Source of the DNA: a virus
DNA length: 33,399 nucleotides
IMG/VR virus record: IMGVR_UViG_3300029742_000017
Direction: 5' to 3' (one strand)
This document shows positions 15,153 to 18,081 of this stretch, one piece after another; positions within the stretch are counted from its first letter, which is position 1, and each line of letters begins with the position of its first letter. Made by a program: the position numbers and the translations under genes. The notes under the pieces were generated by a model. The model was not told the origin of the DNA. It made no database searches and saw nothing but the letters and a program-made list of their open reading frames with translations.

Positions 15153-15313
15153 ACACACCACTGTTCATGCTTCGGTGTGCACAGTGCGGGATAGCAATGA
15201 AAGACCTGGAGCTGCTGTCGATCGGGCTTATCAATGACATGTTCACAGAACTCAAAAATGATGACTATGATTATCCGGTAATAGCGACACAGGCGGATAT
15301 TGATAATCTTTAG
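14784..15313 (+). CDS. Tail assembly chaperone G-T fusion made by a -1 programmed frameshift in the A9 run
   Basis: The downstream ORF (track 15086..15313) is in the -1 frame relative to G and overlaps it across A_AAA_AAA/A_AAA_AAG at 15119-15128. Confidence 0.65.
15119..15127 (+). promoter_or_regulatory. Slippery A9 tract for the G/G-T -1 frameshift
   Basis: tc A AAA AAA AAG in the G frame. Confidence 0.65.
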
Positions 15314-15324
15314 GAGGTAGTTAA

Positions 15325-18081
15325 AGGGCTGGAAGAATAAAAGGGATCACAATTGAGCTTGATGGTGATTCGAAAGGCTTGGACAAAGCCCTACAAGATG
15401 TAAATAAACGCTTAAAAACAACGCAGAGTTCGTTGAAGGATGTAGACCGGCTTTTAAAGCTGGATCCATCCAACACGGAACTTTTATCACAGAAACAACG
15501 GTTGCTTTCGGATGCGATTGAAAACACGGAGCAGAAGCTGACAACTTTAAAGGAAGCTAGCGTGCAGGCGAAAGCTGCGTTGGAACGTGGCGACCTTGGG
15601 CAGGACAAATATGATGCTCTGCAGAGAGAAATCGTAGCAACAGAAAGTTCCCTGGAAAAATTGAAATCCCAGGCGCAGACTACGGATGCAACGCTCAAGA
15701 GCTCGGGCGGCGGGCTGAAAAGCCTTGGCGAAGCGGCAGAATCAGCCAGCGGAAAAGTGTCTGGTGTCAGCAAAGCTGCCGGCGGATTAGCCGCGGGAGC
15801 TGCAGCAACCGTTCCAGCGACGCAGGAACTTCGGCGTGACTTATCGTTTCTGGAAGAAAATGCAAAGGGCGCCAAAGTAGGCATGAATACCATGGAAACC
15901 GCATTTAAAACGTTTAATGCGGTTTCAGGGGAAACTGATTCGTCTGTTGAAGCTGTTTCAAACCTTTTGCAGGCGGGATTCACGGAAAGTAATCTCCAGC
16001 AGGCGGTAGAAGGTGTATCTGGAGCGATGTCACGCTTTCCGGATACATTAAAGATCGAGTCGCTGGCAGACTCTATTCAGGAGACTGTCGCCACCGGGAA
16101 ATCTATCGGACAGTTCGGTGAATTTCTGGATCGTGTAGGAATAGGAGCATCCAACTTCGACGAAGATCTGTCTAAGTGTAACACCACAGCCGAAAAAACG
16201 GATCTGGTGCTGAAGACTCTTTCCGAAACCGGAATGAACGATGTTTATACCGGCTGGCGGAAAAATAACGAGGCTTTAGCTGATTACGACGATGCCATGA
16301 TCGATATGCAAATGGCTCTCGGTGATCTGGCAGAAAGTATCGCACCGGTTGTGACGGCTCTGGCGGAAGGAGCAACCAAAGCCCTGGATCTTTTCAATAA
16401 ACTTCCACAAGGTGCGAAAGCCGTAGTTGGATCCATGGTTGGCATCACTGCCGCCGCTGCACCTACACTTTCGGCAGTCGGAAAAGTTACGCAAGGCATC
16501 GATGCTCTCAAAGGATCTTCCGAAAAAGCGGGTATCGTCAGCAAAGGACTTTCCGCAGCACAAAAAAGCGTAGCATCGGCTCTATCTGTAGTTCCTGCTC
16601 CGGCAGCAGCTGCAGCGGGAGCATTGGTAGTTGTAGGCACCGCAATATATTCTGCGTACCAAAGCACTCATGAATATACAAATGCCGCCAAGGAAATGTC
16701 CGAGGTAAACGATCAGAATGTGGCAAGTATTGAAGCGACATCTGAAAAAGCGGAGTTTTACGCAGGCCAGTTAGATCAGCTCAGTGAAAAAGAAAATAAG
16801 ACGGCGCAGGATAAACAGCTCATACAGTCGTACGTTGATCAGCTGAATGAATCAGTAGACGGACTGAATCTGACATATGATGCAGAGGCGGATAAGCTAT
16901 CCGAAACAACGGACGCGATTTACACCAAGATCGACGCGATGAAGCAGGAGGCTTTGCAGGCGGCGTATGTTAAACAATCGCAGGCGGCTCTTGATAAATA
17001 CGCAGAGTCTCAGATCAAAACAGCGGAAGCGCAGGAAAAGCTTAAAACTGCGCAGGAAGCTTATGATAAGGCCGCAGAATCGGGATATGTCAGCCAAAAG
17101 CTTTCGACCGATCTTGCGCAGGCGGAAGCGGAATATAACGATCTGAAAACAGCCACAGGTACATACTGGACTGAATATGTTCGTCAGTCGAATGCAGCGG
17201 CCATGCAGTCCGGGCAGTGGGATAAGCTCGTGGAAGAAGCTGGGCTGGCTGGAAAGGACATCCCGAAGAGCTTGACCGATGGAATCAAAGCAGGACAGTA
17301 TGCCGTACCGACTACTGTGGAAGAATTGAAAGCGTTGATACAGTTCGACGAACTGGCAAACAAGGCTGGGGTTTCCGGAAGCAAGACGGTACAGGAGCTT
17401 TCATCAAAACTTGCTGCAGGAGAAATCACCGCACAAGAGGCAGCTGCACAGCTATCGAACGCTGTGGATCAAGGCCTTGGAACGGCGCCTGCTAAAGCGA
17501 GAGGAAAAGGAGACTCTGCTGGAAAACAGTTTGCTGGCGGTGTATCCAGCACAAAGGGAAACGCCTCTGGCGCCGGAAAAGCGATTGGATCTGCAGCCGC
17601 ATCGGGCGCCGCATCAGCGAATTTTAGCGGAGCAGGCTATAATGATGGACTTGGATATGCGAGGGGTCTTAGAAATGCAATCACTGTGGTTGCAAATGCA
17701 GGGGCAGCTATTGCGCGGGCGGCTCTTACGGCAGCTAAAAAAGAATCTGATCAGCATTCGCCATCTAAAAAATGGGCTGCAGCCGCACTCATGGATGTAC
17801 GGGGCTATACAGAATCCATGTGGAAACAAGTGCCGAAAGTCGAAAAAGCAGGACAAGGTGTGGCACTGGCAGCGATGACAGGCGCCAAATCTGTAACAAT
17901 GGAATCTCTCGAAGGATTAAATCCGATCAACGATATGTCGGCCAACATTGTGCAACAGTTTGATTATAACCAGATGTATGCTGCAATGAAAGCGGCGGTT
18001 AGTGAGTCGAAGTTCTCAATTTCCATTGATGGTCGAGAGTTTGCGCGAGTACTTCGGGGCGTGGGGGTGAATATGAATTGA
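15325..18081 (+). CDS. Tape measure protein, proposed AGG start
   Basis: AGG 15325 is the first codon after an in-frame TAA and lies 7 nt after AGGAGG (15312-15317). The extension (x)AGRIKGITIELDGDSKGL matches the usual TMP N-terminus MAG.IKGITIE. The first canonical start (TTG 15379) has no SD. Confidence 0.8.
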   Translation, partial: RAGRIKGITIELDGDSKGLDKALQDVNKRLKTTQSSLKDVDRLLKLDPSNTELLSQKQRLLSDAIENTEQKLTTLKEASVQAKAALERGDLGQDKYDALQREIVATESSLEKLKSQAQTTDATLKSSGGGLKSLGEAAESASGKVSGVSKAAGGLAAGAAATVPATQELRRDLSFLEENAKGAKVGMNTMETAFKTFNAVSGETDSSVEAVSNLLQAGFTESNLQQAVEGVSGAMSRFPDTLKIESLADSIQETVATGKSIGQFGEFLDRVGIGASNFDEDLSKCNTTAEKTDLVLKTLSETGMNDVYTGWRKNNEALADYDDAMIDMQMALGDLAESIAPVVTALAEGATKALDLFNKLPQGAKAVVGSMVGITAAAAPTLSAVGKVTQGIDALKGSSEKAGIVSKGLSAAQKSVASALSVVPAPAAAAAGALVVVGTAIYSAYQSTHEYTNAAKEMSEVNDQNVASIEATSEKAEFYAGQLDQLSEKENKTAQDKQLIQSYVDQLNESVDGLNLTYDAEADKLSETTDAIYTKIDAMKQEALQAAYVKQSQAALDKYAESQIKTAEAQEKLKTAQEAYDKAAESGYVSQKLSTDLAQAEAEYNDLKTATGTYWTEYVRQSNAAAMQSGQWDKLVEEAGLAGKDIPKSLTDGIKAGQYAVPTTVEELKALIQFDELANKAGVSGSKTVQELSSKLAAGEITAQEAAAQLSNAVDQGLGTAPAKARGKGDSAGKQFAGGVSSTKGNASGAGKAIGSAAASGAASANFSGAGYNDGLGYARGLRNAITVVANAGAAIARAALTAAKKESDQHSPSKKWAAAALMDVRGYTESMWKQVPKVEKAGQGVALAAMTGAKSVTMESLEGLNPINDMSANIVQQFDYNQMYAAMKAAVSESKFSISIDGREFARVLRGVGVNMN

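Follow-up and report, generated by a model that had tools for sequence, protein, structure and literature searches.

The virus record IMGVR_UViG_3300029742_000017 of IMG/VR, a stretch of 33,399 nucleotides (nt) that we call the window, is the DNA of a temperate siphophage in which the gene for the tape-measure protein (TMP) appears to start at an AGG codon. Six more genes of the window have the same layout, and its tRNA gene bears the anticodon CCU, which reads AGG. From sequence comparisons we consider it likely that a sizeable group of uncultivated phages and prophages of Firmicutes, this one included, start virion and lysis genes at AGG by means of their own initiator-derived tRNA(CCU). With slightly less assurance, we also think it probable that the AGG-using phages are a family of temperate Firmicute phages with a private, orthogonal initiation channel, in which an initiator tRNA changed from CAU to CCU gates the late genes and gives them a probably non-methionine, perhaps arginine, N-terminus. 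Because six more AGG genes and an initiator-like tRNA(CCU) accompany the TMP gene, we are probably dealing with a dedicated decoding system and not with weak near-cognate initiation.

Start of the tape-measure gene

The gene follows a G/G-T tail assembly chaperone pair with a -1 slippery site (heptamer A_AAA_AAG at 15122-15128, inside a run of nine A), which is the standard TMP position, and we therefore take it to be the TMP gene. The original prediction had placed AGG 15325 as the first codon after an in-frame stop, 7 nt past the Shine-Dalgarno (SD) sequence AGGAGG, and had claimed that the frame has no upstream extension; both points were borne out when we reread the window sequence. The spacer between SD and AGG is TAGTTAA, whose final three bases are an in-frame TAA, and a second in-frame TAA at 15304 makes an extension further upstream impossible. 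After AGG, the frame runs GCT GGA AGA ATA AAA GGG ATC ACA ATT GAG CTT GAT GGT GAT TCG AAA GGC TTG(15379) GAC, translated from AGG as xAGRIKGITIELDGDSKG-L-DKAL, and remains open until the stop at 18079-18081. There is no ATG, GTG or TTG in this frame between 15325 and 15379. The TTG at 15379 has only GAAAGGC, a poor SD, at 1 nt before it, and the codons of the N-terminal motif precede it, so that it was rightly described as a start that lacks an SD and costs the motif. Sequence comparison supports a TMP gene that begins at AGG 15325 and not at TTG 15379, which is very probably the internal codon of Leu19.

A protein search returned more than 3000 homologues at E <= 1e-10 that share the N-terminal motif. 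The motif that had been recognised as a common TMP N-terminus is present in most of the best 120, which begin M-(1-4 aa)-R-I-K/E/Q-G-I-T/I-I/V-E-I/L-G/D-G-D; the homologue alignment that had been suggested as a check thus agrees with the claim. The conserved N-terminus (M)AGRIKGITIE does begin at AGG, which occupies the Met column of the homologues, and the codons upstream of TTG evolve as coding sequence, under purifying selection. A Pfam scan gave no match for the window TMP, and one homologue (P0032) has PF10145.

About a third of the best 120 homologues are annotated short (MDKAL..., MGGDAS..., MKLDP...), and the four closest (P0001-P0004, 90-100% identical) are all called from the equivalent of TTG 15379. 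Homologues starting at LDKAL had been named in advance as a sign against the AGG start; database gene calls do start there, but the underlying DNA shows AGG upstream, and the homologues seem to start at LDKAL because gene callers truncate AGG-start genes. We examined the DNA behind four truncated entries: L001 and L002, both 90% identical; L003 (51%), which lies as a prophage in an NCBI contig of 407 kb; and L004 (49%). Each of them has AGG in the Met column at 6-7 nt past AGGAGG or GGAGGTGA, and in none does a canonical start follow the last in-frame stop. The codon preceding AGG differs among them (TAA, TAG, TGA, TTA, AAG) and L001 has a 1-nt deletion just 5' of AGG, so that only the SD and AGG are conserved upstream.

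The AGG is found at the TMP Met column in the window, L001/L002, L003/L085, L004/L086, L091, L092, L108, L121, L123, L166, L292 and L293, that is, in about 12 lineages whose full-length TMP identity to the window goes down to 49-51%. Over the 18 codons from AGG to TTG, five synonymous changes and one L->I separate L002 from the window, and TMP residues 2-4 hold the homologue pattern (A/S/G-x-R) in every lineage compared.

Truncated AGG-start genes are present in the public calls P0001-P0004, P0013, P0064, P0068 and others. At least 18 residues are lost from the TMP and 63 from the tail tube protein, and in L002 the tube and chaperone genes are merged or mis-called.

Proposed AGG starts across the window

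A scan of the window looked for AGG codons placed in frame between a strong SD and the first canonical start of a long open reading frame (ORF); gene identities were taken from Pfam. Seven genes (Table 1) share a layout of strong SD, 6-10 nt, in-frame AGG and no canonical start close by. In three of the seven, the AGG overlaps the upstream stop as TAAGG, an analogue of the common TAATG. ATG, GTG or TTG starts are found in the early and lysogeny genes and in those for HNH, terS, terL, the head-tail connectors and the chaperone. Orthologous AGG codons are present at the portal, protease, capsid, tube and TMP genes of L085, L086 and ten further loci.

The segments between AGG and the canonical starts comprise 177 codons in the seven genes. 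Comparison with L087 (90% identical) shows 33 differing codons, 27 of them synonymous and six non-synonymous, and the differences fall 4/4/27 by codon position; we take the segments to be translated in the frame of AGG. The S78 Pfam domain itself begins upstream of the first canonical start of the protease gene.

To put a figure on the enrichment, we took ORFs of at least 80 codons and counted every codon that has a strong SD 5-10 nt upstream and is five or more codons ahead of the first canonical start. In 78 kb of AGG-type loci, 20 such codons are AGG, and the next most frequent codon accounts for four. In a control of 1.17 Mb from canonical-start relatives, AGG makes up 9 of about 860 qualifying codons, a rate that predicts about 0.26 AGG sites per 33-kb window; seven were observed. 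All 46 modelled genes of the window are open from start to stop, and the absence of in-frame stops gives no sign of stop-codon reassignment.

SD-preceded AGG codons are also seen at 720 and 12873, two codons 5' of ATG 726 and GTG 12879, respectively, and the one at 12873 is conserved in L087 and L088. In each pair, either the AGG or the canonical codon may be the start in use.

A tRNA(CCU) resembling bacterial initiator tRNAs

The Rfam tRNA model gives the window tRNA 49.9 bits and flags its 1:72 pair as non-standard. Its acceptor stem has an A1xA72 mismatch followed by G2:C71, C3:G70 and G4:C69, the discriminator is A73 and the CCA is encoded. The anticodon stem is U27:A43, G28:C42, A29:U41, G30:C40, U31.G39. 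A 1x72 mismatch combined with pairs 2:71 and 3:70 is a set of determinants for the formylase Fmt, and G30:C40 alone of the three consecutive G:C pairs of initiators can suffice in E. coli (PMC5389676).

We compared 17 distinct sequences of its family, all with a CCU anticodon. The cloverleaf is paired in 94% of cells, 14 of its 21 pairs show compensatory changes, and none of 500 shuffles matches this. Positions 1 and 72 are unpaired in 16 of 17 members (AxA, GxA, CxA) and U:A in one, the other acceptor pairs being 100% paired. G2:C71, C3:G70 and G30:C40 are each present in 17/17 and A73 in 16/17; G29:C41 is present in 10/17, G31:C39 in 1/17 and A11:U24 in 11/17. In a pattern scan of IMG/VR, where the pattern fixed A72, we found at least 120 contigs with a tRNA(CCU) in at least 46 variants; among the 119 loci listed, positions 1/72 are A/A in 74, C/A in 26, G/A in 13 and T/A in 6.

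In two types of relatives, L170 and L191, the D arm, the variable loop and the T loop are those of bacterial tRNAfMet. An L170-type tRNA matches best, among E. coli sequences, the metZWV initiator genes, three tRNA-Met genes in tandem next to amiC; the identity is 78% along all 74 nt, and the two are colinear for positions 1 to 73. When the window tRNA is compared with the annotated tRNA genes of GenBank phages, its best full-length matches are tRNA-Met, not tRNA-Arg; three unannotated 'Inovirus sp.' circles score slightly above them. The tRNAs that accompany tRNA(CCU) in its phages (CAU, CCC, CGU, UUU) pair 1:72 in the ordinary way.

Two other tRNAs were considered as start tRNAs in their own right. 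In L095-L105 and L122, a second tRNA with anticodon UAU, reading AUA, lies about 275 nt 5' of tRNA(CCU) (for example at 4844-4916 in L097). It was rejected as a start tRNA and is probably an ordinary elongator, because its positions 1 and 72 pair as G.U or G:C and starts show no enrichment of ATA. The 5.3-kb circle L290 (MT135284.1), a porcine 'Inovirus sp.', has at 2936-3009 a tRNA 78% identical to that of the window, with a G1xA72 mismatch and an AGU anticodon. We saw no SD-preceded ACU starts in L290, and the idea of a parallel start system was dropped on this ground.

Co-occurrence of AGG starts and tRNA(CCU)

Two surveys of 80 loci each bear on the link between the codon and the tRNA. In the first, anchored on the TMP and drawn from GTDB genomes, the Met column holds ATG, GTG or TTG in 77 loci, ATA in one and ACG in one, and is broken in one; AGG is found in none of the 80. 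No tRNA(CCU) was detected at these loci, all 80 of which were scanned by script and 50 with a tRNA-finding tool. The second survey was anchored on the capsid and drawn from IMG/VR, the tRNA being scored where at least 5.5 kb of upstream sequence was available. AGG starts occur there on capsids 63-99% identical, with the AGG farther upstream in the L095 group. With sufficient upstream sequence, tRNA(CCU) is present beside 27 of 27 AGG-start capsids and beside 0 of 20 ATG-start capsids (at most 60% identical), which have no tRNA of any kind in comparable upstream sequence.

A forward test on three truncated homologues chosen beforehand (P0067, P0104, P0101) gave the tRNA and several AGG starts in all three, and an AGG start of the TMP in two. 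Mosaic phages extend the association to other genes. Phages of the L097 type differ in their tail module, with AGG on a putative sheath and tube of myovirus type (assigned from size and order only), and L292 has a ClpP-type head, with AGG on portal, capsid, tube and other genes. As L097 and L292 use AGG on non-homologous genes, AGG use follows the tRNA and not gene ancestry.

Two prophages have other codons at the TMP Met column, after an in-frame TGA and before the same N-terminal motif: ATA in L039 (at about 1004) and ACG in L043 (at about 9998). Neither has a nearby tRNA or another gene with such a start. We rejected these as parallel systems, each being confined to one gene and lacking a tRNA; they look like isolated near-cognate or decaying starts.

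Genomic context

The SD of the next gene, HNH at 6746, directly follows the CCA of the tRNA (ACCAAGGAGGAACTAATG), which places the tRNA at the head of the late operon. It is preceded by a sigma70_r4-like gene (6236-6544), and a Rep gene (PF23343) lies just 5' of the tRNA region. The hairpin beside the tRNA (Table 1) could be a processing or regulatory element. Our search for promoters and terminators beside the tRNA gave one promoter-like site (6550-6577), not above chance. The tRNA(CCU) occupies the syntenic place in the 10-kb flanks of L085, L086 and L088; the L087 contig ends before that point. L085 is a prophage in contig CAXVQW010086136.1 (assembly GCA_964261755.1). Among the 30 window proteins scanned against Pfam there is no aminoacyl-tRNA synthetase, formylase or deformylase. 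The early region (1659-6544) encodes PcfK-like, PcfJ-like, DUF3102, DUF4406, DUF6275, REP_ORF2-G2P and sigma70_r4-like proteins.

Table 1. Positions of the AGG-start genes, the tRNA and neighbouring features in the window
Feature	Position	Strand	Remarks
tRNA, anticodon CCU (reads AGG)	6661..6734	+	sole tRNA of the window; named tRNA-Arg(CCU) by ARAGORN
Perfect 15-bp hairpin, GACACAAGGAUCUCC...GGAGGUCCUUGUGUC	6615..6653	+	7 nt 5' of the tRNA; z = -3.4; no T-run after it
Portal	9546..10757	+	putative AGG start; GGAGG + 6 nt; canonical start +15 codons; PF04860; orthologous AGG in L085, L086
Prohead protease S78	10745..11371	+	putative AGG start; first canonical start +16 codons, within the Pfam domain
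Major capsid	11371..12534	+	putative AGG start overlapping the protease stop (TAAGG); first canonical start +19 codons
Major tail (tube)	14238..14777	+	putative AGG start; first canonical start +63 codons
Tail assembly chaperone G	14784..15152	+	read directly from the sequence
Chaperone -1 frameshift extension T	ends at TAG 15311-15313	+	overlaps the SD of the TMP gene; gene pair 14784..15313
SD of the TMP gene, AGGAGG	15312..15317	+	7 nt 5' of AGG 15325; SD conserved in relatives
In-frame TAA abutting AGG	15322..15324	+	TAA, TAG, TGA or a sense codon in relatives; not a conserved coding position
AGG, proposed TMP initiation codon	15325..15327	+	same column as ATG/GTG/TTG of 77 canonical relatives
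TMP gene	15325..18081	+	putative AGG start; 918 codons from AGG, 900 from TTG 15379 (database call); first canonical start +18 codons
First canonical TMP start, TTG	15379..15381	+	choice of gene callers
CBM_5_12 tail-associated gene	19912..20598	+	putative AGG start overlapping the upstream stop (TAAGG); canonical start +10 codons
CHAP endolysin	22668..23402	+	putative AGG start overlapping the holin stop (TAAGG); first canonical start +36 codons
Large serine recombinase (integrase)	24436-26025	minus	lysogeny gene

A possible mechanism and its alternatives

How might such a system work? The tRNA at 6661-6734 would descend from a bacterial initiator tRNA by a change of anticodon from CAU to CCU, which removes its identity for methionyl-tRNA synthetase. 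It would be transcribed with the late operon and aminoacylated, most plausibly with arginine through C35 and U36. Its acceptor stem (1x72, 2:71, 3:70) should make it a substrate of the formylase and a poor one of EF-Tu. With initiation factor 2 (IF2) it would enter the P site of the 30S subunit and pair perfectly with an AGG positioned by the SD, and this perfect pairing should let it pass proofreading by initiation factor 3 (IF3). Feasibility is suggested by the fact that an engineered initiator tRNA of this kind works in E. coli: i-tRNA(CCU)/AGG was the best non-canonical pair in six strains (35-402-fold) and exceeded AUG in one of them (bioRxiv 10.64898/2026.04.16.719103). Initiation at AGG predicts the N-terminal peptides (X)AGRIKGITIELDGDSK, (X)AKNNIKALR and (X)PKVKFNIHDVHYAK, where X would be arginine, formyl-arginine or nothing; AGRIKGITIELDGDSK, with or without the extra N-terminal residue, would be the TMP peptide specific to the AGG start. 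The benefit to the phage is a matter of speculation: tying the translation of virion genes to a phage product may sharpen the late switch and keep these genes silent in the lysogen, and may bring independence from host tRNAfMet.

Several observations weigh against a dedicated initiation channel. On the side of the tRNA, the window copy lacks the run of three G:C pairs at 29:41, 30:40 and 31:39, having only G30:C40, and its D stem has the elongator-like U11:A24 instead of A11:U24. The anticodon loop, CUCCUUA, places U at position 37, as in 16 of the 17 family members. A pyrimidine at this position is very unusual, whatever the tRNA. The D loop, AAUGGGA, has G20 by alignment to E. coli tRNAfMet. 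A20, a major determinant for arginyl-tRNA synthetase in bacteria, is thus missing, although some relatives (L181 type) have it, and the amino acid carried by the window tRNA is therefore uncertain. Basic amino acids on an initiator tRNA are, moreover, poor substrates for the formylase. AGG is in normal use inside genes, where it makes up 13.5% of the arginine codons, and an additional elongator role of tRNA(CCU) is for this reason possible.

On the side of the loci, the association counts are not phylogenetically independent; the AGG group in the capsid survey is one clade. L291 bears the tRNA and has GGG at the column of the TMP AGG (about 9941-9960, GAG ACA GGG GGA AGC AGG ATC); its sole nearby AGG is that of the arginine in SRIKG, 16 nt from the SD. 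L174, L182, L272 and L283 also bear the tRNA and show no AGG start in the 10-13 kb segments examined, and their capsid-like gene has an ATG after AAGGAGG. This lineage is either a true exception or has its AGG genes in other parts of the contigs, which measure up to 62.7 kb. The tRNA(CCU) of these four loci, and of L255, has C1xA72, G29:C41, G30:C40 and C31:G39.

Is the AGG, then, a weak near-cognate start for the fMet-tRNAfMet of the host, sustained by a strong SD or by translational coupling and perhaps serving to hold the TMP at a low copy number, with tRNA(CCU) serving as an elongator tRNA-Arg? We consider this unlikely. The TMP and portal are indeed low-copy proteins, every AGG gene is packed tightly on the gene upstream (the three TAAGG overlaps included), phage tRNA-Arg genes are common and internal AGG codons exist. 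But AGG is used by the capsid and tube genes as well, which encode the most abundant virion proteins, and a weak start for a low-copy protein does not fit them. The enrichment concerns AGG only, with no other near-cognates. The tRNA aligns with tRNAfMet and lacks both A20 and a purine at position 37, and the contrast between its conserved 1x72 mismatch (16/17 variants) and the full pairing of its other acceptor positions, as well as of 1:72 in companion tRNAs, is not what an elongator would lead us to expect. In addition, relatives without the tRNA never have AGG at the TMP and capsid loci surveyed, and IF3 rejects AGG paired with the normal tRNAfMet (PMC6868393).

More improbable still is a downstream TMP start, be it TTG 15379 or one of the minor starts of translation table 11 (ATA 15337 or ATT 15352, for example), with the similarity upstream left as a relic of a lost ATG. 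The choice of TTG by gene callers (P0001-P0004), the ATA, ATC and ATT codons within IKGITIE, and the isolated ATA and ACG starts of L039 and L043 would speak for such a start. The SD, however, lies at least 19 nt from ATA and ATT and 61 nt from TTG. The codons from AGG to TTG drift synonymously, residues 2-4 keep A/S/G-x-R, and the AGG is conserved where the bases before it are not. By the same logic, the tube gene would lose 63 conserved codons.

A start mutation in a decaying prophage, or an error of sequencing or assembly, needs only a single T->G to turn ATG into AGG, and the window does have lysogeny genes such as the serine recombinase. This explanation is effectively refuted by the recurrence of AGG in independent assemblies (Logan, ENA, NCBI, IMG/VR) down to 49-51% TMP identity, already excluded as it was by AGG at the Met column in L001-L004; there are seven AGG genes per genome, and all ORFs are intact. 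Just as poorly placed is a fusion of the TMP with the upstream G-T chaperone by frameshift or stop readthrough, which would need no start codon: the T frame ends 12 nt before AGG and coincides with the TMP frame in L003/L085, but the offset between them varies among relatives (14 nt in the window, 13 nt in L001, 15 nt in L085), so that the frames are not conserved, the TMP frame is shut by TAA at 15304 and 15322, and the other six AGG genes stand in no consistent frame relation to the genes upstream.

Comparison with known systems

To our knowledge, every natural translation system begins with a single initiator tRNA, which reads AUG and its U-centred near-cognates, and we know of non-cognate start codons with their own initiator tRNA only as engineered tools. 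The engineered set consists of anticodon mutants of E. coli tRNAfMet, including i-tRNA(CCU)/AGG and the amber initiator tRNA(CUA) (background in PMC11744186). Like the putative phage system, these orthogonal tRNAs combine an initiator-type body and a non-CAU anticodon with a start at the complementary codon positioned by the SD. They differ in being laboratory constructs with an intact tRNAfMet body and all three G:C pairs, whereas the phage tRNA is natural, phage-encoded and tied to virion and lysis genes, and has a diverged body (only G30:C40, U37, often without A11:U24). Bacterial tRNAfMet has in common with it the 1x72 mismatch, G2:C71, C3:G70, A73 and G30:C40, up to the 78% identity of some members to metZWV, and is set apart by its CAU anticodon, its full set of three G:C pairs and its place in the bacterial genome.

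Some crAss-like and Lak phages reportedly recode stop codons with phage suppressor tRNAs. The stop-codon recoding of late genes with such tRNAs is the nearest natural analogy: a phage tRNA alters the meaning of one codon, and this codon is concentrated in late or structural genes, which in the stop-recoding phages suggests temporal control of the lytic programme. The difference is that recoding acts on termination and elongation, with TAG or TGA read as sense, and here the step would be initiation. Regulatory non-AUG starts, such as the AUU of infC and the minor starts of translation table 11, resemble the AGG in being non-AUG codons at an SD-defined start, but the normal tRNAfMet reads them, with low efficiency, and their second position is still U. 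AGG departs from this rule (PMC6868393) and has its own tRNA here. Finally, large lytic phages carry codon-supplementing tRNAs, among them tRNA-Arg. The window tRNA is likewise a phage tRNA gene with a CCU anticodon (C35, U36); it differs from them by its 1:72 mismatch, the lack of A20, U37 and an initiator-like sequence, and it is a single gene at the head of the late operon of a small temperate phage.

Our literature search yielded engineered non-AUG initiator tRNAs and work on IF3 fidelity, and no description of a natural AGG initiator tRNA in a phage or a cell; most subscription journals lay outside the search, and prior work is possible. Within this scope, we rate a natural AGG start with a phage initiator tRNA as categorically new. 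GenBank phages contain no near-identical DNA, and since the closest capsid of an isolated phage is only 52% identical, we found no cultured representative.

Implications

If confirmed, AGG initiation by a phage tRNA would be the first case of a start codon reassigned in nature. It would add a new layer to the control of phage late genes and may make them independent of host tRNAfMet, which is the target of some toxins. It would explain why the main structural genes are systematically truncated or missing in annotations of these gut phages. The phages would also offer ready-made orthogonal initiator tRNAs that do without the full motif of three G:C pairs, and their existence would raise the questions of how a non-methionine initiator is formylated and how it is accepted by IF2 and IF3.

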